A stretch of DNA of 64,000 nt from Blasia pusilla. Its lineage: Eukaryota. The stretch lies in the NCBI GenBank assembly GCA_050084515.1, contig CM114271.1, positions 42,346,001 through 42,410,000 of the forward strand, given 5' to 3'. The notes below the pieces were generated by a model. That model had not been told where the DNA came from and ran no database searches. It saw only the letters and a list, made by a program, of their open reading frames with translations. The position numbers and the translations under genes are program-made. Positions 16,050 to 55,100 of the stretch are shown piece after piece (the stretch's first letter is position 1; each line of letters begins with the position of its first letter).

Positions 16050-19000
16050 TGGCGTTTGGTCCAAGCTTCCTATGGCACGAGTCATGTCTTTAGCTAATCC
16101 GTAGACTAACGCATGTGCTTCCCTTGCAACCGTTTGAAGTCGAAACACCTCTTATGCATGTTCCATGTCTGCCTCCGCAATCCAAGTCGCCTCTTTCACA
16201 TGGTAGCCCTTCCACTTGAACAAGTACGAGTACTTGTTGGCCCTACGCCTCGAACGCAAGGTGGTCTCCACCTCTAACTCCGGTTCTTCACTCGCAATTA
16301 CTGGCTGCGATCTCAACGTTTGTCTTCGCTCAGGACGCTAATTATCTTGAAGATATTTCTTCAAAAATGACATATGGAAAGTGGGATGAATCGTGAACTC
16401 TTCTGGAAACTCCAATGTATACACGTCCTCAAACAGGTTTTCCTTAATCACTTACGATCCAACATACTTGGCAGATAGCTTCGCGGACAACTCCTTCGAA
16501 AGAGTGAGATTCTTCATACTCAACCACACTTGTTCCCCAACTTGGAATCTCACTTGGTGCCTACTCTTGTTGGCATGCTTCACTTACCTCACTTGAGCCT
16601 TTTCAAGGTTTCTCCTTGCTCGCTCCTCCCGATCTTGCATTTCCGCTAACAAACCTTCTATCTTCGCTTGTCAAGTCTATGCCGATGTAATACCCTTTGA
16701 AAGCGCTAGGTCAAGAGGCCCTTCTGGCTCACATCCATAAGCTACAAGAAAAGGAGATTCTTCAGTTGAAAAATGCTTGGTTGAGTTATAGCAAAACTCT
16801 GCCATACTCAGCCACTTCGACCAATCTCGCTAGTCTGCGCTTACGTAATTCCTTAAGTACTAGTTCACAAGGGAGTTTACCTTTTTCATCTGCCCATCCG
16901 TATGCAAATGGAAGGCAGTGCTGAAACTCAGCTTGGTCTTAAACCTCTTGAAAAAATGCTTCCAAAAGGCATTGATAAACTTTGGATCCCGATCTGAAAC
17001 AATACTCCTTGGCAACTCGTACGCACGCCACCAACTATCCAAGAAGAGTCCATAATTCGTATAGGTTGTCGCTGAATCCAGCGTCGACACAAATCTCCCC
17101 AACTTACTGAACCGATCAACTATCACAAGTATAGCATTGTATCCCTCAGATTCTAGAAGACTCGTAATGAAGTCCATACTCACACTTTGCAAGGGTGCAT
17201 CTGAAATCGATGCACCCAAAGGCTACAGCAAGCCTTGTTTCTTTGCATAAGAAACTGTGTTCTCCTAACAGGTCACACACGTCTTCATATATTGAGTAAC
17301 ATCTTCTTTTATGTTGGGCCAGAAGAACCTCTTAGCCAGAACAACTAGCCTGGATTTCTCCCCTTTATGTCCTGCTAAGGGTCCGTCGTGATATTCCACT
17401 AACACCTTGGTTTGCATTCTCCCTTTGCCCACATAGATCTTGGTCTGCTTGAACCTTAGAAAACCGTGCCTCAAACTTGTGTTGGCCACCTTCTCGCCAT
17501 GCTTCAACTTCCTTAGGTACTCACTTGCCAGAGTGTCTTTCATGTATCCCTCACGAATCCTTCTTTCAATGTCTGTTTCCTAAGGAACATTGCTCTCAAG
17601 ACCTATGTTGTCGATGGTATGTCCTCATCCCTATGACTTAAGGCATCTCGAATGACATTATCCTTCCCCGGCTTGTGGATTAGTTCCACATTCATCAACG
17701 CTAAGGTATCATGCCATTGTAGTTGTTTTAGTGTCACTCGATCATGGGTCTCAAAATACTTTAGTGATACCTTTTCGGTGAACGCTCGAGTCCTGTGAAG
17801 TCCTAGATAGTGATGCCACTTCCTCAAGAAATGGACCACCGTGAGAAAATATTTCTTATGAGTGGGCCACCTCCTCTCGGTGTTTTTGAGCTTCTTGCTC
17901 CCGTACGCTACAAGTCTTCCTTCCTATACCAACATTCTTGCAATCGCAAAATCACTGGCATCAGTATGCACCTCGAACGGCTTGTCGAACTCCGGTAGCT
18001 TCAGCACTGGCTCCTACAATAGGATCTCATTGACCTACTTTAATGCATCATTCACTTTTTGGGTCCAAGCCGTGTTAGCATACTTCGCGGTCCAATATGT
18101 GAGAGGTCTCACAATCCCTGAAAAATTCCTCACATAGGTTTGGTAGAATTGCACCACGTCGATAAACCTCCTCATTCCCTTCACTATGGAAGGCGGTTTG
18201 CACTCGGTGATGGCTTTCACCTTGTCCATATCTGGACTAACTCCATCTTTTCTAACTACATGACCCAAGAACTTGATCTTGCGCAACCCGAACTCACTCT
18301 TGTCCATATTCGCGTACAACTTGTTCGCCCTTAGTTTCGACAACACCGCCCTCAAGTGTCAAGCGTGCTCCTCTAGTGACTTCAAATAGATGAGTATATC
18401 ATCAATGTAGATGATCATATACTCGTCCGTCTCCTCGTGAAAAATGGAGTTCATCAACGTGGTGAATTTCGGAGGTGCATTACATAGACCGAAGGGCATC
18501 ACCACAAACTCGAACAAGCCATATCTCGTTCTACATGGAGTCTTCTCCACATACGCTTAGGAAATCCGAATCTGGTAATATCATGACTTCAAGTCAATCC
18601 TACTGAAATACTTTGCCCCTGAAAGTCTATCTATGAGGTCATCAATCCTCAAAAGAGGGTAATTTTTTCTCACCGTCGCCTTTTTCAGCGCACGGTAATC
18701 CACACACAGTCTCATCTTTCCATCCTTCTTCATCATAAAGAGAACATGCGCTCCATATGGTGACTTGCTGGTTCTAATGTAGCCCTTCTCTAAGAGATCA
18801 CTTAACTACTTTTGCAACTCAACAAGCTCCTCTTGATTCAATTTGTATGGTGCCTTGGAAGGTGGTTGAGTTTGGAATGTGGTTGATGACCTCTATCTTA
18901 TGATCGACTGCCATATGCGGTGGCAACTCGTTTGGAAGCTCATTTGTCAAGACATCACCAAACTCCTTGACTACTCTCTATAGCAATCATGGGATTCCCC

Positions 19001-19470
19001 TCGAAGTCGCATCCTGATCTCTGCAATTCTCGCTTGTGATGTCCTCCACTTGTCTCAATAAGCAAAGGAACCCATCCTCAAACTTGGTCAGACTCTTCCT
19101 CGTAATGGCGTTCACCAACTCCCTTCTCATGGGCATCTCGTGAACCAATCTCAACTGCATCCGTTTGCCTTTCACTAAGACGCTCAACGTCAATGGCCTT
19201 TGTCTTAGCTCCACCTCATATGCATCCAAGACTGTGTTCCCCAAGACTCAATCAATGCCATCCATCTCACACACTGTGAAATTTCCCTTCGACTCAAATA
19301 CTCCACATCATATCGTCAAACCTAGCACCAACTAGGAAGTTCGATGAGACTTGCCTCTGGAAAAGCCTACATGAATGGGCTCGTCCACCTTAGAGGTTGA
19401 AAAACCCAACTCCTTCACAATTCTTGTTCTTAAGAAGGAGTGTGAAGCACCTGTATTCATGAGAAACATC
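16050..19470 (-). pseudogene. Chromovirus pol (PR-RT-RH-INT-chromodomain), disrupted
   Basis: NTGASHSF protease; MPFGLCNAP and [15 protein letters not shown] / VSDRDPKF integrase; C-terminal YLFKWKGYHVKEATWIAE chromodomain (~16150-16280). Multiple stops and frameshifts. Confidence 0.9.
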
Positions 19471-19639
19471 ACATCACCTCGCGATCAACAATCTTGGATC
19501 TTAGGAATACCAAGTTGGGCGTCCTCTTGGTGACTTGAAGGGAGGTCTCCAGACCTCTCGCCGACAAGTGATTAGCATCTAACGCAATCATACTCCCATT
19601 ACTAACCTTTGGTTTGGAGCATCCCTTTTCCATGTGCCC

Positions 19640-20572
19640 AAGTTTGCCACACTTGTAGCACAACCACCTTGCCGTTTCTTGACTTCGGATGTTGCACTCC
19701 CTTCGGCTTAGCATGGCATTCCTGTCACTTTGCCGCGAGGTTGAGAGACTCTCCTTGGTCACGCTCAACCCCATTCCAGACTCTCTTGGGTGCCCCTTTT
19801 TATATCACACTCTTGGAAAAAAAAATTTGTCTTGAAGGGCTTCGGTATTTGGACCTCATCATCCCCAATTTGCTCATCGAGCCTCAAAAGCTCCACGCAA
19901 GTATTTGGAAACTCCGGAATCCTATATAGGGCCTTCTCCGCACTCGGTTTGAGTCCACCAATGAAGATCGCTATCTGGGATGCCTCATCAATCTTAGGAA
20001 TAGAGTCCAACTTTGCGCTAAACTCACTCGCATAAGCGCTAAGGGACCCAGTCTCTCGCAGTCGCACGAGCTCTACCCTATCGTGGATCTCTTGGTACTC
20101 CGGGGTGAATCGGTCACCAATCAGCGTCTTGAACTCCTCCTAACTCAGAGGTGAACCACCGGCCATATATTCTTCTCTTCGCGCTGTCCACCATTGTAGC
20201 GCATGATCCTTTAGAAAGGTGACCACCACCGCCACCTTATCTTGCTCTGCTGCCCTATGCGCCTTGAAGTAATATTCCATCTCCGTAAGGAAATCTTTCA
20301 CCTTGCAAGAACGCCCCAACTCCAGTGAATGGTGTGGATAGGTTTGTTTTGCATAGTTTTTTGCCAAAATTCAAAGCTCGGTTTGACTCGAGCTCTGCAA
20401 TCCATTTTTTTTGCAGGAACACTTGTTTGGTCATCATCTTCATATAGTCCATCATTTGGGCATAGAATGGCAGTTCACTTGAGTTTGGAACCGCCGGCTC
20501 CACGAGAGGGTCTGTGTTTGGGACACCCTCATGTTTGGTGTTTGGCACTTTGGGAATTGGTTTCTCATCCAT
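19640..20572 (-). pseudogene. Chromovirus gag, disrupted
   Basis: FLKDHALQWW, LRETGSLSAYASEF, CCHC knuckle CYKCGKLGHMEKGC. Confidence 0.85.
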
Positions 20573-20791
20573 CAGCTCCCAATCCAGAATCGGTTTGTCT
20601 CACGGTTCGCGTCGCTTGACTTGGCATTGCCGTGGTTCATCTCCTTCAGTCGCCATCTTCAAGCCGCCACACTGAGATCTCCTCCTTGTTTCTTGCATCC
20701 CTCCCCAAGCATTTGGGCCTCGCCTCTACCTTGGGTTTTCCCCAAGCGTCTGATTGCTCCCACAACCCCAAGTTCTTGCTCACAAAGGATT

Positions 20792-20804
20792 AGCTCTGAT
20801 ACCA
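20792..20804 (-). promoter_or_regulatory. PBS complementary to tRNA-iMet
   Basis: TGGTATCAGAGCT on the minus strand, 2 nt from the 5' LTR. Confidence 0.9.
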
Positions 20805-22731
20805 CATGTCATGTGCCTACTCTCCTCGAACGTCAATCTCAATGTTGCAAAAGCGTACGTTTAGTAGGACACGCTCTCATTGCCAACCTGCACCCAAATG
20901 CACTCACGTTAGTCTGGCTTTGGGTCAAGGGGCCCTCCAATCCACCAAGTCCTTGACTCGGCACCTCATCAAGCTCAACCTTCCCTCATTCCTAGGTTCC
21001 CAACACAGGAAAGTCTTCCAAGACTTGGGACAAACTCTCTAGTTAGTTCAGGCACCTAAAACGGCATTTGCGCACCTAACGGTTCCACCTATCCAACGGA
21101 CCTTGCATGAGTCCCTAACCAAGACTCAAAAATATGATTCGCAAGTTGTAATCCAATAAGGACCTCCAAAATCCACTCTATTGGATTTGGTTCGGGTTTC
21201 GAATCCCAACGCCAAACTCCCAATGTGTTCCTTGCCCTTGAGTCACCCCGTGGCTCCCAAAGTGGGGTTTGAGTGCCAAGCACCCTTGGAGACCTTCCCC
21301 CTTACTAGTACTTTTGGGGATTCCTAGGAGCCCCCTACCTTTGGGAAGGAGCACCCAGGCCCTCTGTTTGGCCTTCAACCCAAGTCCTTATATAGTCAGT
21401 TTTGGCCCATATCTCGGCTTTTGCTTAAGCGTTTGCCAAAAATCTTTAGTGCGTTGGAACCAAATTTGCATAAGCTTTCCAAATCTATCCTACTTCTCCC
21501 AAACGCATCTCATGACTACAAGTTATGGTCAAGAGTACAGTCAAAAACTCCAAACGCTAGTCGTGCCCCAAGTCCGGTTCTTATCCTTGGCCGCATCTCC
21601 TTGCGAGACTCATATTCCTAAAGTCTGGGTTCCGGTCTCCTTAGTCGCAACCATAAACGCATGAAACGCTTGTTGCGCTTGCGTCTTGCACTTGTGTTTC
21701 TCTAACTCTAAAGTGCAAACCATCCTAACGTGAGCTCGCTAGAGTTCGGATGTTCCGCTTGGCGCTTGGTTAGTTATGAGGGTTGCGACAAAATATGTGA
21801 AAAGTCAATATGGGCAAGACACCAGGATACTAGTTATGAAATGGGAAGGTTGACAAGACAACCATGAGACATCAACCGCGGAGTGAAGACATGAGATAGC
21901 CATGAGACACATAAAACGCGGGTCTAAGCTCCAATATATATTTAAGAATCCAAGAGTTGCATAATGTGTAGGAAGTCTCCTCCAAGCCATCTTGACCAGT
22001 CTACAAATTGCAAGCCATGTTTGGGTACGTAGAGGGACAAAACCAAGGAACTAAAGGAGAAATTGGGGAAGGTGGGTTCCCCTTAGGAGAACCCTACAAT
22101 TCTCCCTCCCTATCCGCTCAAGTCCTTGAACTAGGAACTAATTGTAAAAATTGTTTAGTCGGATTTCAGGTTTAAGCTAAGGGACACACCTTAAGAAATA
22201 AACCAATGTGGTCAAGTATAGGCAAGGGACTTAGGGAGATTAGTGAAGACTTGAAGAAAAATATTATATGCACTTTGGGATATTTGATTCGATTGGCATT
22301 TGGCAGCTTCTCGACTACCTACGAAACACGCAAGCAGTTGAGCATTAGAGACTCAACTTAAGTCTTTCGCTTATAAAGCTCAAAGTTGGGTTTTCCTCGA
22401 GACGAGACTAAGAGGATGAGAACCACATAGGTTCTCAACGTAACGTCTTCCTAATACGATAATCACATAAACAATAAATTTTTCAGACTACTTTAAGTGC
22501 TTACTAGCCACACATCCTATAGATTCTTTGCCTAGATGAAGTCAAGAAGAAAGAGAAGTCACCAATATTTTTGGGCTCTCCTAGACCACACTATATTGGC
22601 CTTAAAAGGCCTTGACCTTTACCTTCAAGACTATTGTACTATATCTAGATTAAATTTCCATAATTATGAAATATTAAAAATAGATAAAATCAGATATTGA
22701 ATTCTATCAAGATAGGGTAGCTAGAGTAGTC

Positions 22732-26679: not shown

Positions 26680-29600
26680 AGCTACGATAGTGTGATCTGG
26701 CCAACCACTCTGAAATCCAACGGGATCAATTGAACTAAAATCGTGAGATGACTCCGACAATGCACCCTTGCTAACATCATATAAGTCATTCCATGGATGA
26801 AAGATTTTCTTAAAACCAATAGGCATTTTCCCTAGACAGTACATCCTTGTGATTTGTGGACTGTTATTACATAACCTAACATAAGGGGAAATGTTCGTTT
26901 TACAATTTTGTCTACTACTACTGGGGATGATCTCACAAACACTACTCCTTACATTCACTAGATTATGATTTGATGTTAATTTTACAATAATTACCTTTAC
27001 ACTTTAGTTTTGGAAAGTAAACTTAAAAACTATATATACCTATACTTCCATTTGCAATACCTCTCGGTAAATCTGAATTTGTGGTCAAGATAACTCTACC
27101 ACCAATAGCTAGGAACAAGATGTGATGGAAGTCAACTTTTTTCAACCAAGAAGTCAAATTGTAAGCAACTATTACATTTGTAGCAATTAACTTATTAATT
27201 ATACTAGCTTGACCAAAAAAATTGCGAAGAGAAATGTTGTTAAAGGAGTTTACATCACAACGATCTGAGCAGACAATAGTAGTGTCTTCAAAGATAAAAT
27301 CTATTGCTTTATCCTCTGAGTTGGTGCATTGTTGCAAACATTTTTCAATCTCACTCTTAGAAGGCAATTTCACTCTAACGTTAACAAGAAATTGCACAAA
27401 TTCAGGGTCATAAGCATGTCTCATCTAGGTTGTCAAGGAAAAGGTTATAATCTGCTTTAAAAATGGTGAATTTGATAATTTGCACTGACCACATATAGTT
27501 GGCACATGTCACATATCAATATTACTAGCTTTGTTGATAAGGAATGTAAGCCAGTTGTAGGTGTAACATCATTCGAGCTCATTGCAATAATATGTAACAT
27601 CTTTGGAGTTAGCATGGAACATTCGTCAATAATGATGACTTGGCATGCTTTCAATCTATGGTAGACATTTGATGTGGCGTTGAGAGCTGAAAGTTCCCCA
27701 CTTACTAGAATATTAAAGGTAGAGTGCATAGTGTATGCCCGAGCATGTAGACGTACAACAACAATCCCAATAGTGGCTAAGAGTAATACATCTATTCCAT
27801 TTTGTTGCCAATATCTTGCCATAAATTTGATAAAATAGGATTTACATGTTCGAGGTCCACCTGTAAGTAGATGTAGACAAGATGTACTTTTTTGCAATTG
27901 GAGAAAGACTCCAAATTGATTAAGGATCAAGCTTGGTGGATCAAATGATTTGTCATCAACAAGTGTCTAAGTAGGTATTCTCTTCTTGGGTTTAGTGGCA
28001 ACGTCATATGGATAGTTAAAAGAATCTCGTCCTCCACACGGGGCATGAGCATGTTTGACATCTTATCCAATACCGCAACAACGTGTAGTTTATTCCACAT
28101 GGTATATTGTGCATAAGTCATGACAAGTTTCTCAAGATCTTGACCATAGGTAATCTATCCCCTATGGACACGTTTAAGTAAAAAGGTCTATATGGGAGAT
28201 GATGGGGATAAGATTTCCGTTCCACTTCAAAATTTAATTGACTATAATAAGACATTGTCAAAAAACTAATTGGTGTGATGGAATGGGCTAAAATCAATGA
28301 AACAAACTATTCTTGAAGTTTTTTATACATCTGCTCCTATTGAATACAAGCCAATAAAATGAGAACTCTTAGAATTCACATTATTTTTACTGACCTCGTA
28401 ATTCTTCCAATAGTCCATAAAAGACACATGAAATAAGCTTGCGAATCGATGAATTCATTTTTTTGTAGGATGGAGATAAGTCTACATTGATTTGCCATAT
28501 AAAGTGGTCCTTCTAAAAGTAGGATTGGAATTTGTATAAGTGATAGAAGCAGACCTAGAAATAATTGGAATTCAAAGGGCGAATAGAGTAGCTTCTGTCA
28601 CTGATACACATCTATTCAACACAACTCCAAACAGAGTTGAATTTCATCAAGCCCTTCGCGACCAAGATGTCTAAGAGATTCAGTATCAATACTAAGAGCT
28701 TCAATAGGCTTATATTTTAGTGCATACTTAATGAGGTAGAAGGACCTTTCAACATCAGTGACTCGTTACATATTCATATGCGCCCCCCACAAAAGAAGTT
28801 GTAGAGGATGGTAAGGAATGATTTTTTTCAACTCCAAGTCTAAAGTATGTCTCTTGATTCAAAATTGGATCTATCATGGGTTCAAGTTGTATGTTCGATT
28901 CAAATGGAAGGCCTAATTTGCAAATTCTAGTCTTAGTAACCTTCTCTAAATTTGAACATGCTACTAGTCTGCAAATATGTAGTTTCTTATGTATAACATA
29001 GTTAAATAAGATACATTCAAAGGTATTTATCTCTCCACTTTAAAAACTTTGCACTGTTTATTACTATCATAGATGGCTGGAACATAACAGAAAATCTTAG
29101 ATGTAGTTTTTGAGATTGAATCCTCTTCACACCTAATATAATATGACTATGCATACAACCCCTACCTTGCAATTCGTAATATATTACATAATGGAGGACC
29201 TTTCCAAGAACACAATGTCCAACAAGGATAAGTTGTTGCAAGAATTCGTTAAGTCTGAAATGGAATAAGAGTGCACACTCCACAAGAGCATCCTTCCAAT
29301 CCATGTATGGATTAATTTGCTTAAGTAAACCCTCCAAATCCCTTATCTCTAACCAACGGTTGTAGATAATTCATCCGAAGTAAATGTTAAGAAAAAGTGG
29401 GGCATACCCCAAGCAACAACCATTACTTTCAAGTCCAATAGATGCCGATGCCAATGAGGGTTGGAAGAAATATTAGGACTGAAGGCATGTTTTGTTAAAG
29501 AGCAAGATAAATCCTCTTCAGTTAAATTTGGGTTTGCTACAAGTAGTTTATCCAACTCTTTGTTTAGGATGCAAGTCCTTGAAGTAGAGGCGATGATAAT

Positions 29601-30140
29601 AGAAATTTGTAACTTATGCATCAAAAGGAGTAAAGTTTGTATAGAGTAAACACATAAAAGAGTTGCTTTGTCGTACAATGGAAGTACTCAAGAAAAGTAA
29701 TTTCGCCATTATAATATCCCCTTAGATATGGAAATAGGAAAGGGGACAAACTTGTCTTTAAGGTTAATTGTGCATCAACTCTGAGTCCTCAATAATCACT
29801 TATATGTGATTTCCGTTATGTAGAAACCTGTCAGCAATGCATTGTACCACGATCAAAGATGTCTGCATTACATTTTTTTCTTAATTGGAACAATAAAGGA
29901 TACATCATGTAGAATGTTCAATTATGGGTTGTATGGATTAACATTCATTGAATAAGTGATCAAGCCTTTCTCTTGAGAGGCGAGTACAATTGTGTCCACT
30001 GATGTGGAAGGGAAAATAACTAAGCCACATGTGGGGATAGGTAGTTCTAGGAGGGTCATGTAATCACGATAAAGTGAGTTTAACTTCAAATTTACAAGGA
30101 GTATAGTTTTGACTTGTTGATATATGAATGCAGCATTTCC
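26680..30140 (-). pseudogene. Helitron RepHel remnant (HUH Rep + PIF1-type helicase), interrupted at 30141
   Basis: Rep motifs GMPHFFLTFT and YELQGRGCMHSH; helicase motifs LLTGGPRTCKS (Walker A), IIIDECSML (Walker B), VILTTNSDLPRGIANGSIG. Confidence 0.88.
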
Positions 30141-30278
30141 TGTCGTGCGCATACATATCGCTACACAACATACATCGCTCGTCACATCTACACCACACAA
30201 CACCGATCTTCCCCACACACGGGTTGATCCACACATGTACAAAAATCAACTCATACATATACATGGAGATCACACAAC
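30141..30278 (-). repeat. Terminal repeat B2 (138 bp)
   Basis: Matches 30759-30896; I see one mismatch. Confidence 0.95.
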
Positions 30279-30756
30279 AAAAATAAAGAGTAGTAAAAAC
30301 GGCACACCCGGCCTAAAACTCCACTCCTCACTCTACATCGGCATATCGAGCCTCGTCCACCCTGTGCTATCAAGGAATCCGGACGCTAGCACCCTAGTCC
30401 TAGCTCACACACATACAAGGGAGGTGCTCCAACGGCCCAACATGAGAAAGATGGCTTAGGAAAGCCATCTTCCTCTCTTATATAGGGTTGGGAAGAGCCA
30501 AAAGGCTCTTCCCTAAAAATAACCCTTCCTTGGTAACCTTCAAGACAAAGTTACCACGGGCGGGTGACCTGGTCAACAAATCACCCGGCTGTAAAAGACC
30601 TCAACATGAAAGTTGTCAGAAACGACGTTCTTGACACAATGGACCTATCCTCGACCTCATCCGACACCGTGGGACAAAGTTACACTCAAGATAGTCCGCT
30701 GGCTCCTACGCCCTATCCACGATAGATCTCGGCCTATCGGCTACTCAGATGTGACA
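30279..30756 (-). repeat. Repeat A2 (478 bp)
   Basis: Matches 39086-39564 at roughly 95% by eye; contains TATATAA on the minus strand near 30478-30484. Confidence 0.95.
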
Positions 30757-30758
30757 AC

Positions 30759-30896
30759 TGTCGTGCGCATACATATCGCTACATAACATACATCGCTCGT
30801 CACATCTACACCACACAACACCGATCTTCCCCACACACGGGTTGATCCACACATGTACAAAAATCAACTCATACATATACATGGAGATCACACAAC
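30759..30896 (-). repeat. Repeat B1 (138 bp)
   Basis: Copy of 30141-30278, separated from A2 by 2 nt. Confidence 0.95.
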
Positions 30897-30907
30897 CGCC
30901 CCCCTAG
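30897..30907 (-). promoter_or_regulatory. Polypurine-tract-like plus-strand primer site
   Basis: CTAGGGGGGCG immediately precedes B1 on the minus strand, ~65 nt after the pol stop. Confidence 0.7.
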
Positions 30908-30972: not shown

Positions 30973-32260
30973 CTATATACATCTCGGACACATCCATCGT
31001 CCCGTGGGAACCACATCAAGAGGGGGGGTCAGACATGACATATGCCATCCTCGAGAACAACCATCACATACCAACATGGTGGCTGCACCCCTCGCAGATC
31101 CACACAACATACACCTCAAGCCTGCAGGTACCACTGCCAAGCTCGGATCCACCATCCCATCTATGTTCGGAAGATGACATGGCGCACAATTGCGCACATG
31201 ATCCTTCCAAACCATACCATCCCGTCCCTCCAACATGAGGACTCCGGTCGGTAATACCTCGCGCACACGTAGGATCATGCGCCTCGCTGATGACATCTAG
31301 CGTCATGGGTGCCGCCGCTGTAAATACACGTAATCTCCAGGATGAAACCTCCTAATCCCTGGACGATAACCTCCTCCATGAATGGTCGCGTACCTCAATG
31401 TATCTCTATGCTGGGCAATAGCTAAGTTCTCAAAGGCCATATGCATAACTCTACGAAAAACTTCTGCCCTCTGAGAACATGCTTGCACCCACACATCTGG
31501 ATCATCAAGATCTAACACCTCTGCCATGTCACGTCGAATCGCTGCAGGTAAATCTGGCTCTCTCCCAAAGAGCAAAAAGTACAGTGAAAATGACGCCAAG
31601 GATTCTTGCCGACTAAAGCCATAACCCATAGCCAACCATGGCAACTATAGGTCCCACTCCCTCAACTGTCCCCACTGCAAGCCATACTTGCGCAATCCTC
31701 TCTTCACCGTCTGTACCACTCTCTCCGCCAACCCATCCGCCTCAGGATGATCTCTAGACGTGGTGCGGTGATCTATCAGCGCCTGATCACACAAGGCCTG
31801 AAACTCTCCCCTGAACTCAGTACCCTGGTCAATCAACACCTCCTCCGGTGCACCAAAGTGACTAAGCACACGATCTAGAAACGCATAAGCTGTTCCCTCG
31901 CTCGCCTTTTCTGGTAGTGCCACCAACTCTATCCACTTGGAGAAATGCTCCACCATGACCAACACGTACCTATGATGACGCCCTGTCAATGGAAAAGGTC
32001 CCGCAAAGTCTAAACTCCACGGATAACCTAAACCCATAATCGGCAAAGGATGTAACTGCGGAGTGGGAGCATTGAAAGATGCTCGCACTCTGTCATATAC
32101 CATACATCTGGCCACAAACTGCTGTACCCCAGTATGCATGCCGCGCCATCAATACTCAACCCGGAGTAAGCTGTAAGTACGCTTTACTCCAAAATGTCCC
32201 AACTCCTCATGGGCATGTCGCACTATAAGTGCTCGCTGGGAAGGATGAGGTACCACTCGT
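30973..32260 (-). pseudogene. DDE integrase with C-terminal PHD finger (PHD 30976-31113)
   Basis: HAHEELGHFG zinc motif; WSLDFAGP / IDQGTEF / GLAERVVQTVK catalytic core; C4HC3 CMLC...CDGC..GWHMSC..PL..VP.GRWMCPRC. One TAG stop and frameshifts. Confidence 0.92.
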
Positions 32261-32599
32261 ATCCTACCATATCCCCATACCCAAAAAATGTGAGTCCCCT
32301 CCCACCTGAACCTCTTGGCTCTCTGTAGGATCCGATCCCGCTCCCTAGCACTCACTATACTCGCAATGACGCCAGTGCGCAAGAACTCCACAACCTCCAC
32401 GTCGTCATGGATATCACGACCACCTGTCGCCTCCTCACTAACCTCCAGATCCAAAGACTCATCATCCAATCCCACCACTGGAGTCATCACCTGTGGCTGA
32501 CCTGCCATAGTCAACCAACAAAGATAGGCAGATGCATGCCAACCGGGCACCATCTCCTCATCACTCTCTCCGTGCCATCGAGCTCCTGTGTCGTCTCTC

Positions 32600-33960
32600 T
32601 GACTCGGACATGGGTTACGACTCAACCCATCTGCATCCTGGTTCAGCCGACCTGGCCTAGAACCACCTCAAACTCATACTCCTGTAGAAATACACCTGGC
32701 AAGCTTGCTCGTAAGCTTGTCGGACTCCATCAAACACCTCAACGGCTGATGATCAGTGATAAGTGTGAAAGGGTTGCCGAATAAATAGCACCTAAAATGT
32801 GCCACAGCCCACACTACAGCCAAGCACTCTCCCTCGTAGGAGCTCTACTTTGCCTCTGCAATGTTGTTCGATCGGCTCGCGTAAGCCACAACGAACTCCC
32901 TCTCCTCGTCATCCCTCTGAGTAAGCACTGCTCCTAGACCCAACATGCTCCAATCCGTATGTAACTGGAATGGGCGACCCCTAACCGATCTCTGTAAAAT
33001 GGGTGAGGATGTCAACCTATCCTTGAGCTCCTGAAATGCTCGCTCCTGATCATCTCCCCACAACCAAACCTGATCAAATCTCGTCAACAAGGTCAAAGAC
33101 TTTGCGATCGCACTAAAACCCTTGACATACCATCGATAGAAGTTCGCCAGTCCAAGAAATGCTCGGACTCGACTCACATCTGTAGGGCGTAGAATCTGCG
33201 CAATAGCCTCTACCTTCGTCTGCTGGACGCCTAACCCACTCGGGTATATGGTGTGTCCCAAGTACTCAATCAACTCCTGAAAGAATCTGCACTTGCCTGG
33301 ATGTAACTTCAGTCCATGTAACTGCAATCGCTGAAACACCTCCTCCAAGTGTCGCTCATGCTCCTCGACCGTGGAACTGAAGATAAGAATATCATCTATG
33401 TAACATTGTACAAAATCCAAGTCAGCCAGAATCCTATCCATCACTCTGAAACTCTGCAGGCGCGTTCTTCAACCCAAATGGTAAGAACCGCCACTGATAC
33501 AAGCAATCTCTCCCGAACCGATCTATCCCCCAGAATGCTGTCTTCTCCCTATCCTCCAACCTGATAGGAAGCTGATGATAGCCAACACGGAGATCTAAAG
33601 TACTAAAGATCTTTGCATGCCCTACCGCATCAAAGATCTCCTCAGGAGTAGGCATGGCGTACCGATCTGACCTCGTTTGTTGGTTGATAAGACGGTAATC
33701 TCCACACATCCGCCTATCCGTCCAATTGCCATACATATCCTTCTTCGTCGGCATGACTGTGGCAGATGCATACTACCCATGTGATAACTCCACAAGTACT
33801 GCCTCCAACAAGTCCTGACTCATGCTCTGAATCAAGGCTCGCTCCATATCAGAATACCTGTAGGATCGACGAAAGATCGGTATCCCGGGACCCTTCAGCG
33901 TACCCAAGTCTCTCATACTGAAGGCAAAACAACTGACATGCCCTTTCAAAACCTATGAAC
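32600..33960 (-). pseudogene. Gypsy reverse transcriptase + RNase H
   Basis: RMCGDYRLIN, LDLRVGYHQ, LPFGLKNAP, YIDDILIFS, LHTDWSMLGLGAVL, VAYASR. Confidence 0.95.
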
Positions 33961-34334
33961 TCGCCGTCGCTCTCCTCCTATCAACTTGAGACCTATCACA
34001 GGCTCCCAAGTCTCCATCGTGACCTCACTCGGAGAGGACGCAACCTCCGGCTTTGGTTGCTATGTAGCAACCCTAGCCACCTCTGCAACAACCACTCCAC
34101 TCTGACCTCCTACACCATGCTCCACATCCAAAAAATGAACATGTGCTACTCTAGCCGCCTTCGCACTCTCTACTCGAACGACGTCCCAAGAAGTCCATGG
34201 GTGCCTATCTCTCCTCGTCTCGCCCCCAGCCAATGCCTGTACAGACCCTGTAGGCAATGGTCCAACTTGTGGACGTGACGGCATGGATGACACTCGCATC
34301 CATCTCTCGCCACCATACCTAGGTGACTATCCAT

Positions 34335-35265
34335 GTGAGACGCTTGAGGTCCATCGCCGCCTAACACTGCCTCCGGATGCCTCGGTCATCCCCGGCACCG
34401 CCGTAGTACCGGTAGTGAACCCCATGGCGCGCTTGCGCTCATCTGCTGTAGGCTCCTCCAATGCTCCGGTCACCTCATCCCAAATCATGCCTGGCCCTCC
34501 CTGACAAAAGGCATGGGATGTTCGGAAGCTCACCAACGTAGGTAAGGCTGCCCTAAACTCCCCCACCCTATTGGCCATGGCCAACGGTGGTCTATCATCC
34601 CGTGTCACCACCGAGATCGACGCCCGAGCCCAAAATAGCATCCACCGTGAGATGTGGTGCTCTCTCGACTCCACCGTATGCTCGACTCAAGACTCCGATG
34701 GTATCAAGTTCGCCCACCATAGTCGTGGACGATGGGCACGTGACCCAACTCTCGTTGCATCTAACAACACAAAGAGAGTCCCAACCAGACTCACCGATGT
34801 ACACTCGTCATCACACGTGCACGAGTGTCTCCCAACAACGGCACGTTCTCCAAAATGTACGCTGGAGAACATATCTTACTCTCCTGCAAGTGTCGTACTA
34901 CTCGCAGCATCTCCCAAAACATCCCTGACCTCGGATCCTGCAATCCAAATCCTCGGCTAGTTGATGAATGACCCTGACATGGCCATCCAGCAATCACCAA
35001 ATGAATGGTGCCAACTCTATCCAGATCCTGCGCCCCCACCAAAGAGATGTCGGTGGGTAGCGTAAGCTGGTATCCCCATACTGCATATACCGACAACAAG
35101 TCAGGATACCTCTGGACCAATCTCGCCACGTGACGTAATGATACCCGCCGTGCGGTCTCATCTCTCTCCACATAAAGGTACTGATGCACCCGTATGCCCG
35201 CCTGCAATAGTGCAGCCAATCCGGTGCTAATCCCTCCGAAGAGATCTAACACCCTAACACCCTCC
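34335..35265 (-). pseudogene. DNMT3-like C5 cytosine methyltransferase domain within pol (frameshifted)
   Basis: Motif I VLDLFGGISTG; II YVERDE; IV AGWPCQGHS; VI YILENV; VIII AHRPRLWWANL; IX ERKRAMGF; motif X region (intact RRQVLGQAM in copy 3). Confidence 0.9.
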
Positions 35266-35689
35266 TCTAGGCACTGCCACACAACAAGTGTGGTATCTAG
35301 TGGGGTCATCGTCTCCACTCCAAGAGCCCAATCGCCACGTGACTCTCGCTGCTATGGGATAAAAACATGACTCCACGCCTGCCTCACAAGGTTGTCGGCA
35401 CTCCTCTGTAGCTCGCGAGTCGTACCCCACAATGGTGAAGAGGCCTCGCCAACATGGGAAGAGACACCCGCCATGGCCTGTCTCTCCGTGGGACTATCCG
35501 CTACTGGGACATCCTCCGCATGTGCATTCCCCTCCAACAACTCTCTTGGCCACCTAACACTACCTGTGAAAGCTGCCAACGTGGTCACAGACTCGCCTCG
35601 TGATCAACCACCTCGTCTCGCAAACTGCACGGGTAACTGACTCATCCGGCCGTCACCTAACCGCCATCCTGGCCGATAAGCAACGGTCT

Positions 35690-36000
35690 CCTCCCACAAG
35701 TCAAGGATGAATCCTAGGGGATATAACACTGTACTCCCCACCAACACATCGTACGACTCAGCTAGTGTCGTAATTGCACGTGTGCGCATCATAGCACTAT
35801 CCATCGCATGCTCTGGCTGGACTCTGACAAAAATCTCCTGTCGAGTCATATACTGAGTGGGTGATACCCCCCAATCGAGGTCTGTAACTGGAAGGGACAA
35901 GGCTCATTGTCGGCCTTCCGTAACCCCAACGCTAAACACGCCACCTTCCCTAACATCAAGGGTTGCGCCCCGAATCAAGTAGGACGCTGGCCATGGTGGT
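35690..36000 (-). pseudogene. Aspartic protease
   Basis: VLLDSGAQPL (~35960-35985, with a frameshift) and YDVLVG. Confidence 0.75.
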
Positions 36001-36769: not shown

Positions 36770-38072
36770 TCTCATGCTCCTGCTCCATCTCCTCTGGTTG
36801 GTGGTGGTCCTCTACCACCACGTCCAGGAAGAACTCCCCGACCTCCTCTAGGACGACTGCACCCAGGCCCTCGGCCTACCTCTGGACGTGCCCCTCGGCG
36901 AAGGTCAAAACATCTATCCCTAGTGTGACCATATCTATGGCAATGGTCACATTGGTGCTGTGGTGGGGCCATCCTCTATGGCTCCTGAGCAATCGGAGGC
37001 GCTGGTGGTCCTCTCCCATGCTGTGGGCAGTCTCTCTGCCTATGGGCCCCTCCACACGTCCAACATTGGTCCCTGATGGGCAACATATGTAGGTGCGGGT
37101 CGTTGCCTCATAAGCTCACGGTACCCGCCCTGCTCTCTAGGCACACTGGCCCGCTCCCGTGGTACTGGTGCTTGCTTTGTGGGCTTTGTGGGGTCACCGC
37201 CAAATGGACCCGTCGACTCTCAAGAAAATCCAGCGGTCACTACCTGCTCCTCACTCATGTTGAGCTCAATACGCTCAGACAACTCAAAGACCACCTTCAA
37301 TGTGTGAATCAGCACCACATCTCGGACTCTCCTCCATAGTTCTCGGTCTAGATTCCCGTACCAATATTGGACTGACTGCGCCTCAGTCACTCCAAACGTA
37401 GCAATGATCAGCCTCCTCATGCATGTGAATGCCTCTCTCAGACTCTCAACCGATTGTCGCTGAAAATCCTATAGACTCTTCAACTTGTCGTTGCGTACGT
37501 CCTGGTAGCTCTTCCCTAACTGTCGGAAGAACTCCACTGTGGGGCTGAAGCTGGGTGGCCCTCTACCACCAGAGGTCTCTGCCACATCGCCTATCTCACT
37601 ACCCTCCTCTCCGGGCTGATGGTGTGGGTATTTCTCCTCTCACAATCCCATCATATGCCTCGCGACCACTAGTGGACACATACCCTGGAGCCCAATACAT
37701 CCTCCACGCATCGATCTCTACTGAATATAGTGATCGGAACTCCATGTTGTCATCCATCGGAGGACCCTCCAAGTGCTGGAACAACCCCTTCCATGCCATG
37801 AAAGGGTTGAACCGTGTCGGGGTCCGTATCTCATGGAAGTCGCACCATGTGTCGAACTCCTTGATAAAATCATCTAAGTCGATGGTGCCCACTGCACCCG
37901 AGAAACGACGCATGCCCCGATGGCCCATGTCGTCCATCTCCTGCCAAGTACTCATCGTGACGGTGAATCTCGTCACTGCACCGTGTGTCGGTGATGACGA
38001 TCCAGTCACGGATGGATGTCGAGGGAGCTCCTCACTGGTAACCCCTCCGTATCTCACTCCACTCCGTGTCAC
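36770..38072 (-). pseudogene. Gag with two CCHC zinc knuckles, frameshifted
   Basis: RRFSGAVGTIDLDDFIKEF capsid-like start; knuckles CWTCGGAHRQRDC (~37030-37070) and CDHCHRYGHTRDRC. Confidence 0.8.
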
Positions 38073-38624
38073 ACCACTACTACTGCTCGCACTACCCCAT
38101 TCTTCCGAACCCTGGAAGAACGCCGTGATGACAAACCCTGTCTCACCCGCTCAAGCACTCAGACTCACCGAGAGTCTCCCACACGCCTCACTAGCTCACC
38201 TATGCTAACATCAATCCCGTGATGACATACTCGGCCTCACGCACGCTCAACACTCGGGCTCACCATGAGCCTCCCAACTGACTCACCTAACCTAGCGACA
38301 CTCTCTCGGGTCATACACGCGACCCCTACTCGGCAACCTCCATATATCCACCAACATGCTACACATGAAAAGAATCTACACTCGTCACCATCACTGCACC
38401 CATTTAGCACCAGCTACTACCCGATACCCAGCACTCTCAATCACACACGACAAGTGCGGGAAAAGGGACGCGAATGGGTAACCTGATCACGCCCTCCAAT
38501 CTGCTGCACCGTCAACATGCACTCCTCCACATGATATGACAATCTCCGCAACACAACACTCCCCTCGACCAACACGTCGATCCTCCCGTCAACAGATGCG
38601 GACAACCCGTCGGCATCATGCACA

Positions 38625-38757
38625 CCCGTCCGCGCCCATCCACGCCCGTACGCGCCCGTCGCCGCCCGTCGCCGCCCGTCCGTTGCCCGTCGCCGCCCGT
38701 CCGTTGCCCGTCGCCGCCCGTCTGCTCCCGTCTGCTCCCGTCCGTCGCCGCCGCGCC
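38625..38757. repeat. CpG-rich tandem repeats (GCCCGTC core, 10-11/21-bp periodicity) in the element leader
   Basis: Direct reading. Confidence 0.85.
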
Positions 38758-39071
38758 CTAACCCTAGACCGGCCGTTTTACTTGACACCCCCCTGGCGGC
38801 AGCAAGCTCTAACTCTTCTCCCTGTGTACTCCCGACATTCCATGAGCTATAAGACGACGTTACTCTTGCCGACACAACCTGCGCTACACCCTGCTGCTGT
38901 CCCCCATCAATCCGCACCAGCAAAATCTGAGAAAAATGGACAGCGCTTCCGCCCACGGCCTTCCGAACATAAAAATGACACACAAAACGTCACACACACG
39001 TCTCCAGGGGCTGCCGACCAAGGAAACTCGCTTGCCTACCTGCCAACAACGAATTCCCACCATCCCCTTGA

Positions 39072-39085
39072 CATCTTTCTCATGT
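39072..39085 (-). promoter_or_regulatory. Putative self-priming PBS
   Basis: ACATGAGAAAGATG abuts A1 and is the exact reverse complement of the minus-strand sequence at 39260-39247, ~31 nt downstream of the TATA-like box. No TGG-type tRNA PBS is present. Confidence 0.75.
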
Positions 39086-39564
39086 AAAAATAAAGAGTAG
39101 TAAAAACGGCACACCCGGCCTAAAACTCCACTCCTCACTCTACATCGGCATATCAAGCCTCGTCCACCCTGTGCTATCAAGGAATTCGGACGCTAGCATC
39201 CTAGTCCTAGCTCACACACATACAAGGGAGGTGCTCCAACGGTCCAACATGAGAAAGATGGCTTAGGAAAGCCATCTTCCTCTCTTATGTAGGGTAGGGA
39301 AGAGCAAAAGGCTCTTCCCCTAAAAATAGCCTTTCCCTTGGTAACCTGCGCACACAGGTTACCAGGGGCGGGTGACCTGGTCAACAAGTCACCCGGCTGT
39401 AAAAGACCTCAACGTGAAAGTTGTCAGAAACGACGTTCCTGACACAATGGACCTATCCTCAACCTCATCCGACACCGTGGGACAAAGTTACACTCAAGAT
39501 AGTCCGGTGGCTCCTACGCCCTATCCATGATAGATCTCGGCCTATCGGCTACTCAGATGTGACA
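39086..39564 (-). repeat. 5' terminal repeat A1 (479 bp) containing the promoter
   Basis: Copy of 30279-30756; starts TGTCAC; TACATAA at 39291-39285. Confidence 0.95.
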
Positions 39565-41461
39565 TCTCACATTTTGATGTATTGTAGTTCCATGATATGA
39601 ACGGGCTATCTACAAGGGAATAAACACAAAAAATCCATTATGGAAAATTTTATATTTTGAAATAATGCCAACCCTTTAGTCCACAATGGACAGGAGCTAG
39701 AGATAGAGGGGGTTACATGTTAGTACGTCGCGGATGTAAGATCGTGGGATGTAAACATTTACATCACATATCTCTTTCCCGCTTGCAAAGATTTGGCATA
39801 AGTAATGACTACATGATGAAGGGTAATAAACTTGGATATGAAACTATTACAAATGGCATAGGGAGGATAAGATTCAATTTTCACTAGAGTATGGTCCACT
39901 CGATTGGAATCACCCAAATGGATAGATCCACACTAGCCACAACATTGGATCAAACTAAAAGTACTTGGGCACACAAATATCCACTTATCTAGTTAGGAGA
40001 GAGCAGGCATATAACTAGTGACTAGAATATGGCTTCCTACATAGTTGTAACTTACATGAAGTTCTAAGGCGTGAACAACGACGACGTTGCTACCTCGCGC
40101 GGTCTAATATAGCTAGCAATTGAGATATTCTAACAAAAAAATAAAATTTTGTTACAATATGGCGCTGCTCATAGACCATAGAAACAATAAAATACTCAAA
40201 GTTCGCTTTGCTCTTACCCTCAATCAACGTCCCTCTAACATAGTAACAACAAATGAATAGTATCCATATAGAAGACACACACCAATAAGAGTGAGTAAAA
40301 TAAAACCAATGCTCTCAATATGCGGAAGCCTAAATGAGAATATGTGCTTCGGATGCATCCTAAGTACATTGTACTAAGAGGTGTAGGTGAGAAATATGGT
40401 ACAATGCATTATGTCCAAGTGGTTGGTTATTGTTACAAGTAATACGAGGAGATATGAATGCAATAAAATTTTCGCTCCAAAACAATCATAACATTACCAA
40501 CATAATAAATGAATCCTGCATGAGCGCTTACGATTAGGTAAATATGAAGTGGTTGTTAACAGAAAAATATAATGCCATGATAAAGATGCGAAAAATTAAA
40601 ATTAACAATGGATGAGATGATGTGCATAATACTGAGACAAGATAAGTGGATAATAATATGATTGCTCTTGTGGGCGGCAATGGTAAATAGTGTAGAGCTC
40701 TTATGAAAGAAAATAGAACAAAATTTAGAGAAAGACAACAACTTGAATAGATGCGCAAAAGGAGTATTCAGCCATGTGTTTTTAAGTCATGGAGACGCTC
40801 GTCAATAGAATATATACCCCCTGAACATACATGGCCAAAGTTATTGCCCCGAACCTTGAATTGGTGAAGTTTTTTTGAAAATATGATAGAGGAACTAGCA
40901 TCCGTCACATGAGATTAAAAAAATACCAATCTAGAGACTAGTTTTTTCACTTGCGTGCATACACAGAGTATTCTAATATTGAGAAGCATGAACGACGTTG
41001 AAATAGGTAAGAAACCCGAACTAGAGATTGGTGGACAACCTCTTAAAAGAAGCACCCATAGATACGCCACAGGTCACAACAAGCGCGAAAGACGCTTATA
41101 CAAGTAAGCAACTCGGACTACAGATTGGTGGACAACCTCTTAAAGTATTGCTCATCCAGAAGAAAAGAATGGGCCCGCCATCTACTTGAGCAGATACGTA
41201 ATACACTACGGAAGTGAATGGAATTGAAAAACATTGCAATGGTACATCAATGACCCAAGAAACTAACAAGAATCATCGCCATCCACTTGGGCACATAAAG
41301 AGACATGCATCTAATCTCGTTGTCCTCCTGCTCATCATAAGAAACTCAAGCAATCGTAGCTTCGTCCAATCTCAGAATATCATGGCAGGCACTCGAGGCA
41401 AAGAATGCACTAAACCGACCAACCCACCCAATCGAGGGCTAAAGTGTAATGCCAACCGGAC

Positions 41462-52129: not shown

Positions 52130-55100
52130 AAGGGACATCTTTAGACTTCTCGTTGACAAATGTTCAGCAGAAAATGCAATCATATTCCAATTACATGCAT
52201 AGAGGATACGGAACGAGTAGAGATTCAACCCCTTCATGGCTTGGAAGGGATTTTTCCAGCATACATAGGGGCCTCCCATGGATGATTACACGAGTTTTGG
52301 ATTCTCCATGAGGCGAAGATTGAAGCTCGAGACTATTTTGGTCTCCAAAGTATGTTATCCCTCACAGGGCATGCAATTTACAATGTGATGGTTGCAATAG
52401 CACCCACTATCGGCATGGAGGAGACACTTGGAAGTCTCACATCTCGGACCAGCCGAGTATCACCCTTGTTCAACCCGTTGGTTGAGTTCTTCCAAGAGTT
52501 GGGGAGGAACTACCAAGGGGTGAGGACCGACAAGCTGAATTCGATTCATGAGTTTCAACGGAGAGCGAGGAGAGTCTACCAGAGGCCTATGCACGGCTCA
52601 TACAGTTGATTACAACAACTTATAGTGTGATAGAGGCATAGACGGCTCAATTTTGGTATGCGATACTAGACCGCGAGTTGTGAAAGAGAGTGCGAGATGC
52701 GACTCTCTTACATGTTGGTTTGCCTACTCTCAAGTATGTATTTTTCTTGGTGGAGCGTATTGAGCTCAATATACTTGAGGTGAGAGTGTTGATAATGGAT
52801 GCATCATCTTCGAGGGAGACGACACGAGTGGCAATGTCTCAATAGAACTGCAACACTTCTTGAGATCAAGTTATGGGACTGAGAGCTATGGGAGGATACC
52901 CGAAGCTAGGACTATAATTAGTACAGTCTTACAATAGATAGTAGGGCTCAATTTTTTCTTGTTGGACATATGGAGGATCACATCGTGAGGAAGATTATTT
53001 ATAGCAAAGTGGAGTGCAAGAAACACCTCCATTTGTATATGAGGGGGCCCAACGAAGGCCACACGTGACCCTTACCTTAATGTGATCATTGCCATAGATA
53101 TGGTCACACACGGGAGAGATGTTTTAAGCTCCACCGAAGATACGCCTAGATGGAGATCGACAGAGGACAAGGTGTAGGAGGTCAAGGACGTGTTGGAGGT
53201 AGGGCCCACCACCTACCAAAACGAGTAGAGGACTTCCATCTGAGGCAACTATGGCAAGGATTGCTCACTTGGAGCAACGCCTTCAGGCTATGACGGCCCA
53301 ACATGCATCTACATTAGGAGCAAGGGGTGTGTAGACTTCTGAATCAACCTAGTGCTAGGATATGGTGGGAGATGTAGGAGGTATGGGATTTCTTTGCAAT
53401 ACCGCATAGCTGGATGCAAATGCAATTGTTACGACAGGCGCAGTGAGAGCTTATGAGCCACGAGAATCCGATGTGGAGTTGGGACCAAAGAGGGGGGAGG
53501 CTGGTAGGCACGCTAGACTCCCTCAGTCATTTATATTATCAAAGGCTCTTTATATCCCGTCAATGGTCCCTAGACGTCCCTTGAGGGGTGTTGTTGTCGC
53601 AAATGCCAATGGAGTTAGAGGAGCGGGTGAGGAAAGTATGTCAACCACGCCTATGCAACATTCGACACGACCTAGGACTAGCCCATAGCGAGAGATGGTG
53701 ATGGATTTGTTTGGAGTTCCACCATTTACAACTAGGGAGTTGATCACATATGGTCACATATGGAGTTTGACCTATTGGGGTTTTCGTATTGGCGGTGGCG
53801 CTCCATGGGAGGGATGAGTTTGGTTCTTCTATACTTGAGACTCGCACAGGAGATGTGGCAGACGTACCCTTGGAGCAGGTACTTGGGACCACGTCCATAG
53901 AGAGTTGGCATGCAGTAGCGGCTAGAGTGGCGGAGTTGGTAGCTAGACCAGGGATAGAGTGCATATCCGTCTCACCTTGAGTTGTTATCTTAGACAATCA
54001 AGATGGAGTATTCAAGTTGCTTGGTCCATCCGTAGTCGTGTATTGACCGCAGCGTGTTCTTCTAGATTCAAGAGCACAATCTCTTTTGTTGGGGAAGGCA
54101 ACATGTATAGCGATGGGATTGTGGAAGCGTGAGATCACTCCATGTCCATTCTAGATTCAAACTACAAGGGAAAGCACATCCCTGACACAGTATATGACTT
54201 ACGATGAGATTGGAGAGAGGATTCGACCCGATCATCCTTCTGATAGTATGATGGTGCGGACGTGAGCGGTGGTCATACCAAACGAATCTAATGATGTCTA
54301 GGTAGGAGCTACCATATTGTACCCCTTAGGGTTCACACTTGACTTTTTTGAGGAGACAACCTCCTATCGACCAGGTTGGCAATCAAGTGAGGGATGTGAC
54401 AATCAGCTACCTGTGCGGTATGCATGGAGACTTGATGGTTCACTCTAAGCATTGACCACAAAAGTTGCAGCTTATTCCGGCACACTATGTTGGCCTCAAG
54501 ATTTACTAGAGGGAAACGCCCATGCAAAGGAAAATCTTGTAGAGGATAGTCTTGAGAAGTGGCATGCAATGAAGAGCGTGACTACACCTATTGGTGACAC
54601 TTCTTCAACTTTGTGGGGAACAAGCATACATTTGCGGAGGAGTGCAGACAAGCTCGTGAAGCAAGCATGAAGTCGGCCGATCCCATGCTCTAGAGCAAGA
54701 CAAGACAGAGTTACTACGTGTTCTATGACACCCTTGGACACCACATGTACACCGATTATGTGGCAATATCATGAGGAGGGTGTATATATACTAGATCTCG
54801 TTGGAGGGATAAGTACTACTTTGGTTGCATGCAAGAGTACAAGTACAACAATACTTGTATGTTGAGAGGGATGAGCTCGAGACTGCATGTAGAGTCTCAT
54901 TATACCATGTGTCAAGACTAGTCCAACAATATCCTCACTTATTTCCAGTAGTTGCGATCATGGGATATCAACATGAGTTGACGGCCAACATTTTGTTGTT
55001 GGGAATGCCTGATCTGGATGGGGTTGGCCCAATATATTTGGTGGTGTCGGGTCGGAGACTTGGTTTTCACGACCTGAGGTTGGCCATATTTTTGGAGATG

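Follow-up and report, generated by a model that had tools for sequence, protein, structure and literature searches.

The window analyzed here is a 64,000-nucleotide stretch of the Blasia pusilla genome (assembly GCA_050084515.1, contig CM114271.1, forward-strand positions 42,346,001 to 42,410,000), and it holds three copies of one retrotransposon family, copy A on the minus strand and the older copies B and C, both on the plus strand (blastn, tblastn). Copy A, 9.4 kb long at 39567-30140 (-), is probably an old, inactivated Ty3/Gypsy insertion of the Gypsy-DNMT3 kind, with the domain order gag(CCHC)-protease (PR)-DNMT3-like methyltransferase, in-frame UAG, reverse transcriptase (RT)-RNase H (RH)-integrase (IN)-PHD and with repeats arranged A-coding-B-A-B; this degree of confidence applies to the explanation as a whole. 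The features of copy A, in the direction of its coding strand, are listed below (LTR, long terminal repeat; ORF, open reading frame).

39086-39567 (-), repeat A1, 5' LTR-like, starting TGTCACATC and pairing with 30279-30759
37938-39085 (-), 5' untranslated leader, between A1 and the Met aligned to Met1 of Marchantia protein P0163
36421-37937 (-), decayed gag carrying CCHC zinc knuckles; aligned by tblastn, across three frames, with P0163 residues 1-494 at 43-66% identity
35573-36060 (-), aspartic protease, decayed; aligns to P0163 residues 610-744, including VLLDSG
34147-35306 (-), DNMT3-like C5 cytosine methyltransferase domain, pseudogene; PF00145, tblastn to L001 ORF2, and motifs
34054-34062 (-), conserved in-frame stop TAG CAA CCA, read directly; in one frame with the methyltransferase and RT matches on either side (tblastn)
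32845-34053 (-), reverse transcriptase and RNase H, decayed; Pfam and 69-77% identity to the L001 RT ORF
31645-32667 (-), integrase with H2C2 zinc domain and DDE core; Pfam Integrase_H2C2 at 32149-32667 and rve at 31645-32148 (E 3.1e-14)
30979-31113 (-), PHD finger at the integrase C-terminus; Pfam PHD, E 8.9e-12, residues 62-106 of 30973-31296 (-)
30897-30905 (-), polypurine tract AGGGGGGCG, directly upstream of repeat B1
30758-30896 (-), repeat B1, pairing with 30140-30278
30279-30759 (-), repeat A2, 3' LTR-like, pairing with A1
30140-30278 (-), repeat B2, ending ...GCACGACAG, pairing with B1 and completing the order A-coding-B-A-B

Ten pieces of the element were submitted to Pfam; six matched, in the order DNA_methylase, RVT_1, RT_RNaseH, Integrase_H2C2, rve and PHD along the minus strand, and four, including both gag pieces and the C-terminal methyltransferase piece, had no match at E ≤ 0.01. 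RVT_1 was found on 33434-33772 and 32845-33468, the latter also matching RT_RNaseH_2 and RT_RNaseH. Together with tblastn against two intact relatives, the Marchantia homologue P0163 and the best-preserved metagenome locus L001, these matches gave the Ty3/Gypsy order gag-PR-RT-RNase H-IN with a DDE integrase, and placed the methyltransferase between the protease and RT of an element with a PHD-integrase, where an earlier note made from the letters of this DNA had put it. Two CCHC knuckles were recognized in gag with P0163 (CWTCGG.../CDHCHRYGH), and the LLDSG active site of the protease lies at about 36000. Pfam Asp_protease_2 stands immediately upstream of the methyltransferase in the relatives P0195, P0193 and P0293. 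The 5' leader contains a tandem array of about 10 units of 10-11 nt (GCCCGTCGCC-like) at 38624-38773.

The methyltransferase of copy A retains motifs I (LDLFGGI, 35249-35229), IV (PCQ, 34982-34974), VI (ENV, 34850-34842), VIII (AHRPRLWWANL, 34737-34705) and IX (ERKRAMGF, 34440-34417), and a damaged motif X (AAMD, 34360-34349). They follow one another in unpermuted order, catalytic Cys and Glu included, at the minus-strand coordinates that the earlier note had given, and are spread across three frames, one for motifs I-VI, another for VIII-IX and a third for X. A PF00145 match, the check that the note had named, was obtained on the N-terminal piece 34791-35351 (-) (E 5.2e-9, 36.4 bits vs a cut-off of 22). 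The location given in the note, 34335-35265, stood, and its boundaries had to be moved, as tblastn carries the domain over about 35306-34147, with 68% identity to L001 ORF2 over residues 9-185 and 43% over 188-409. Stops within the domain comprise the frame-ending TGA at 34793-34791, an in-frame TGA at 34689-34687 and a TAG within motif X. The methyltransferase has suffered at least two frameshifts and at least two stops, and the whole element at least eight frame changes (tblastn). The functional enzyme envisaged in the note is not encoded here: copy A is a pseudogene and a dead fossil, from which no enzyme can be made.

Directly after the domain, the family has a stop codon. Locus-level analyses covered 80 kept loci of the 159 metagenome relatives described below, and the 45 that reached this junction had TAG (27), TAA (16), TAC (1) or GAG (1). 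With copy A added, 44 of the 46 copies had a stop here; many of the loci are close kin, and the count is better read as about five independent lineages (copies A and C, L001, L020 and the main family), to which the ORF ends of Marchantia are added. The next codon was CAA in all 46 rows, followed by CCC in 43 and by CCA in the rest. The exact string TAG CAA CCA occurs in L001, copy A (34062-34054) and copy C (55946-55954), and L020 reads TAA CAA CCA. At every one of the 22 loci with methyltransferase and RT matches in one frame, the stop occupied the same linker codon; at other positions 1.2-1.3% of the aligned codons were stops, with a maximum of 20 of 80 in any other column. In L001, gag(CCHC)-PR, methyltransferase and RT-RH-IN share one frame, broken by two stops only. 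Gene models of Marchantia terminate at the equivalent position in five cases (P0163 and P0175 full-length; P0168, P0190 and P0164 partial), and in further unnamed proteins of 1228-1451 aa the gag-PR-methyltransferase ORF terminates behind the domain. Linker sequences flanking the stop vary by lineage (VAT*QPKPE, KVAA*QPVLK, KVFA*QPMAS, EVLA*QPLMS), which means that the stop has persisted through divergence to saturation. Because it lies right after the domain, the methyltransferase is the C-terminal part of a gag-PR-methyltransferase product rather than an internal pol domain, and the polyprotein described in the note is interrupted at that point. A second candidate, a conserved stop between protease and methyltransferase, was rejected; the stop of L001 is private (L004 has Gln) and linker stops are scattered.

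The arrangement is reminiscent of programmed readthrough, for which the retroviral gag-pol border is a parallel. The predicted leaky stop differs from that border in following both protease and methyltransferase, and most relatives have CAA CCC. In the available parts of PMC2754532, UAG followed by CAR YYA is the essential context of the leaky tobamovirus (type I) stop, in which UAG CAA UUA divides an abundant upstream product from a rarer, polymerase-containing extension; the TAG CAA CCA of copy A agrees with this consensus. By this analogy we infer that ORF1 encodes gag-PR-methyltransferase and that RT-RH-IN-PHD would be made by readthrough. The literature found on programmed readthrough in plant LTR elements, including PMC9744471, dealt with decay-type stops only. 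The stop could instead be a true terminator, with RT-RNase H-integrase reached by splicing, reinitiation, a subgenomic RNA or in trans, and gag-PR-methyltransferase a separate gene. The incomplete CAR YYA context in 43 of 46 rows would suit such a terminator, as would same-species RNA reads that are heavier over RT-IN than over gag-methyltransferase and three Marchantia models (P0183, P0184 and P0194) that fuse methyltransferase to RT, perhaps by a modelled intron. We consider it unlikely, since all 22 undamaged junctions have the stop in frame with the sequence on either side, the CAA after it is invariant, the full TAG CAA CCA is present in L001 and in copies A and C, and no splice joint crosses 34022-34109 in three RNA runs, where the depth is only 0-7.

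The domain was assigned to the DNMT3 type through its better-preserved relatives, in line with the non-permuted C5-methyltransferase proposed in the note. Sequence matches of P0163 to solved structures were DNMT3A/B/C in 25 of 27 cases (best E 1.7e-8), the other two being HaeIII (1e-3) and chain 4onj (2.6e-3), presumably a plant DRM; the alignment was collinear in motif order and not circularly permuted. An AlphaFold model of L001 ORF2, built on a 50-sequence alignment, had a predicted local distance difference test (pLDDT) score of 84.1, and Foldseek returned DNMT3A/B/C only, among the matches listed, with target TM-scores of 0.42-0.84 (0.77-0.84 vs chains of the methyltransferase domain only) at about 20-21% identity. 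Across 50 family proteins the catalytic PC/ENV residues on which the note had put weight were kept (Cys 48/50, Gln 49/50, Glu of ENV 50/50, Asn 47/50), together with the R-x-R arginines (44-45/50) and the motif I Gly (45/50). The model and the alignment indicate that the family methyltransferase has a DNMT3 fold with its catalytic residues. The ratio of nonsynonymous to synonymous rates (dN/dS) was 0.19-0.22 for the methyltransferase of L001 vs five other copies, a rough value given that synonymous sites are near saturation (proportion of synonymous differences, pS, 0.65-0.70). The corresponding nonsynonymous proportion (pN) was 0.27-0.30, between those of RT (0.16-0.23) and gag-PR (0.39-0.41). 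These values argue for purifying selection on the methyltransferase during the spread of the family.

Conservation of this order might also have been maintained for a role other than DNA methylation: the domain might methylate RNA, bind DNA or chromatin, or act on host DNMT3 complexes as a decoy or inhibitor. ECQ replaces PCQ in 10 of the 50 proteins, and motif X reads GQAMD in the family, where GN is usual; DNMT3 enzymes are moreover oligomeric (titles of structure entries), so that a viral-type mimic could interfere with them. Such a role is very unlikely in view of the conservation of all catalytic residues and of the superposition of the L001 ORF2 model on DNMT3-DNA complexes across about 325-345 columns. 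KnitGypsy-Dnmt3 of the alga Klebsormidium nitens, as described in the available text of PMC5890265, likewise has conserved key residues and a Ka/Ks below 0.2.

The two other copies in the window are relatives of copy A at 65-70% DNA identity.

52238-57277 (+), copy C, more decayed relative; blastn 65.6% over 3113 columns to 32747-35750, and tblastn frames
7411-12603 (+), copy B, oldest relative; blastn and tblastn

Their methyltransferase remnants, at about 54728-55823 in copy C and about 7855-8428 in copy B, occupy the same place as in copy A. In copy B the IN-PHD region extends to 12228 and an LTR fragment lies at 12527-12603. The observed-to-expected CpG ratio falls from 0.81 (A) through 0.57 (C) to 0.37 (B), with GC also declining, to 0.40 in copy B. 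Around 9471-9911 copy B is interrupted, probably by a nested solo LTR; the sequence there matches the LTRs of the element at 14.5-21.8 kb at about 66% identity.

Beyond the window, a HMMER search with the 186-aa N-terminal piece recovered 2064 proteins at E ≤ 1e-3, and RT was also present in four of six long representatives scanned. A word-indexed search of longer proteins recovered 45 with E ≤ 1e-8, to which Marchantia polymorpha contributed 18, Calypogeia fissa 3 and Sphagnum 2. Further matches in Closterium, Monoraphidium and Cymbomonas, and a weak one in a dinoflagellate, came from profile searches. Relatives were encoded by 159 of 336 pattern matches on metagenome contigs. No named host DNMT3, DRM or Klebsormidium sequence appeared among the matches of the homologue and representative searches. 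In L001, L006, L007, L038 and L070 no change of frame separates the domain from gag-PR or RT, and P0293 holds PR-methyltransferase-RT-RH-IN-PHD within a single ORF of 2358 aa. The multi-copy land-plant family foreseen in the note is borne out by the three window copies, the bryophyte proteins and the metagenome loci, and a separate insertion of the domain, which the note had raised as a possibility, was not seen, the domain being continuous in frame with its neighbours in L001. This distribution shows that a large family, spanning liverworts, mosses, Closterium and many environmental contigs, carries the methyltransferase as an inherited and integral component. A captured piece of host DNMT3, an unrelated nested element or a chance motif match, which the frameshift-scrambled state of copy A alone might recommend, is refuted by the same domain position in two window copies of such divergence, in 159 metagenome loci and in named bryophyte proteins, by the frame continuity at the five loci, and by the absence of repeats or duplications flanking the domain in copy A.

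A maximum-likelihood tree was built from 33 methyltransferase domains, transposon-type only, with two short Closterium rows left out. Copy A grouped with L001 (100/95), and the two fell together with Calypogeia, Sphagnum and Marchantia (100/99); this bryophyte clade was nested in a clade of unnamed gag-PR-methyltransferase ORFs (96/99). A Prorocentrum protein, 27% identical, formed a long branch outside. Sphagnum joined Marchantia (96/88) with the liverwort Calypogeia outside, a grouping of few rows that conflicts with host relationships; it might point to old co-existing lineages or to host-to-host transfer, and no claim is made for either. Protein P0212 (52% identity to L001 ORF2) is labelled as a Candidatus Obscuribacterales bin and is probably misbinned eukaryotic DNA, because the tree places it among the gag-PR-methyltransferase ORFs.

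More distant relatives, including Monoraphidium, showed a second architecture, RT-RH-methyltransferase-(G-patch)-IN-PHD. In P0024, P0052, P0305, P0312 and P0204 the methyltransferase lies between RNase H and integrase, with a G-patch in some, and the Monoraphidium relative has a Tudor-like domain after the PHD finger. P0043 (1417 aa) combines a C5 methyltransferase with a Dam-type adenine methyltransferase and recalls the dual-methylation 'EpiLTR' elements of a 2026 preprint.

The A pair of repeats (481-482 nt) in copy A is 94.8% identical over 484 aligned columns, and the B pair (139 nt), which brackets the 3' copy of A, is 99.3% identical. The mismatches of the A pair include 12 transitions, 4 of them at CpG, and 6 transversions. 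The closer match of the B pair could reflect a conversion event among the neighbouring B copies, or a duplication at a later time. The order A-coding-B-A-B was also found in L038, L070 and L050 and partly in L064; it recurs across loci and is therefore a family trait and not a private duplication. L038 and L058 have identical flanks on both sides and represent one insertion in two records. The string ccagctaggggggyg, with the tract AGGGGGGYG, precedes B1 in L038, L070, L050 and L058 as well. Repeat A begins TGTCA... and repeat B ends ...GACA, and the A2|B2 joint of the metagenome family reads ...TTTTCA|GTTGTGG. This joint looks like an LTR-LTR circle junction, so that the genomic copy would read as a circular permutation of B-A...B-A.

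Transcription was searched in three RNA runs of the same species, of about 10-12 million records each, and 196, 177 and 231 reads were recovered at 95% likeness. They were mostly 95-99% alike, about half matched only partly, the orientation was sense and the depth low. Partial matches of this likeness mean that the reads stem from relatives and not from copy A, and the most that they show is low-level sense transcription of family members. No listed database sequence containing this stretch was recorded as RNA.

In live members of the family, ORF1 would yield gag-protease-methyltransferase at Gag-like abundance, and occasional readthrough of the leaky UAG, in its tobamovirus type I context, would add RT-RNase H-integrase-PHD. 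The protease would release an active cytosine methyltransferase that is carried with the particle, and the PHD finger would guide integration via histone H3 tails. The nearest solved chains to this finger are PHF12, CHD4, KDM5A/B PHD1, DPF3, PHF21A, AIRE and UHRF1. Most of these relatives bind H3 tails unmethylated at K4, and integration into silent chromatin would fit such predicted H3 reading. PHD fingers in retrotransposons as such have already been published (PMC6673714, in its available part). In the most speculative step, the enzyme may methylate its own cDNA, the circular intermediate or the landing site, so that new copies would arrive marked silent.

A retrotransposon with a DNMT3 domain is known from the Klebsormidium element KnitGypsy-Dnmt3, published in 2018 (de Mendoza et al., PMC5890265, consulted in part). 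Figure legends there give A-coding-B-A-B for SymbioDIRS-Dnmt3 of dinoflagellates and 'the same' repeat structure, with Gypsy domains, for KnitGypsy-Dnmt3. The window family resembles the latter in an unpermuted DNMT3-type domain inside the coding region of a streptophyte LTR Gypsy element, in conserved key residues with a dN/dS of about 0.2, and in the DIRS-like repeat order combined with Gypsy domains; it differs in belonging to the bryophyte side, with Marchantia, Calypogeia and Sphagnum as nearest named relatives, whereas the host of KnitGypsy-Dnmt3 is a charophyte alga. With SymbioDIRS-Dnmt3 it shares the DNMT3-type domain in a retrotransposon and the repeat order, but that element uses a tyrosine recombinase and the window element a DDE integrase with H2C2 and PHD. 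The catalytic domains of host DNMT3A/3B/3C agree with it in fold, motif order and the strings AHRxR..W.NL and ER..GF; unlike them, the window element has only about 20-21% identity, no ADD or PWWP, a transposon ORF as its setting and a PHD finger on the integrase instead. The PHD finger is related in type to ADD. Chromoviruses carry an integrase chromodomain, whereas the window element has a PHD finger as reader plus a methyltransferase as writer.

In the full-text literature, Gypsy-DNMT3 was described for the alga Klebsormidium only and no land-plant account was found, the supplements of PMC5890265 and PMC12344493 lying outside the search. The entry 'streptophytes (Gypsy-DNMT3)' is found in a 2026 preprint, and the 2018 claim is made again in a paper of 2025. 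What is new here is an abundant Gypsy-DNMT3 on the land-plant side, the kind itself being already known from the alga in the text of PMC5890265 that was available. Two observations are added, the conservation of a leaky-stop context and an ORF made up of gag-PR-methyltransferase; the alga may or may not share them.

Several points weigh against this reading, besides the kinship among the junction loci and the saturated synonymous sites mentioned above. Three long ORFs occur in L001 alone of the 80 loci and most of the copies seen are dead; any coding-strand ORF of at least 250 aa was found in 32 of 80. The 43 rows with CAA CCC miss the last A of CAR YYA, and P0293 and P0029, both outside the bryophyte clade, are without a stop at this place. 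No clear target-site duplication was found in the window, L038, L070 or L050 in several registers tried, and the flanks offer weak or imperfect 4-5-nt matches only (AAATG in the window, CATA in L038). Inspection by eye, with no tRNA scan run, showed no tRNA-like primer-binding site immediately downstream of A1. The link to KnitGypsy-Dnmt3 is drawn from architecture and repeat order, the tree containing neither host DNMT3 nor Klebsormidium. Enzyme activity, readthrough, processing and packaging are predictions from sequence.

The widest form of the proposal is that bryophytes harbour a large, partly still transcribed Gypsy clade that makes a DNMT3-type enzyme at Gag-like levels as the tail of gag-PR-methyltransferase, obtains RT-IN-PHD by way of a leaky UAG of tobamovirus type, replicates via DNA that is circular or terminally redundant (A-coding-B-A-B) and methylates its own cDNA or landing site at or before integration. 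Taken jointly, these parts are put forward tentatively, and it is unlikely that all of them hold. If they did, the transposon would write its own silent-chromatin mark while its PHD finger reads unmodified H3 in the choice of landing site. Transposons bearing the enzyme normally used for silencing them invert the usual host-parasite picture. Presence of the family in the genetically tractable Marchantia makes the gain of a transposon from its own methyltransferase testable; the leaky-stop context offers a handle on the expression ratio, and the order A-coding-B-A-B one on the replication intermediate.

Two further elements were recognized in the window. A decayed Gypsy element at 14492-21790 (-) has LTRs of about 920 nt that are 84.5% identical and contains remnants of Retrotrans_gag, CCHC, RNase H, Integrase_H2C2 and rve; no methyltransferase match was obtained in it. 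At 29017-29687 (-), two adjacent ORF fragments matched Pfam Helitron_like_N (E 1.5e-9 and 1.2e-4), and this Helitron remnant adjoins the 3' end of copy A.

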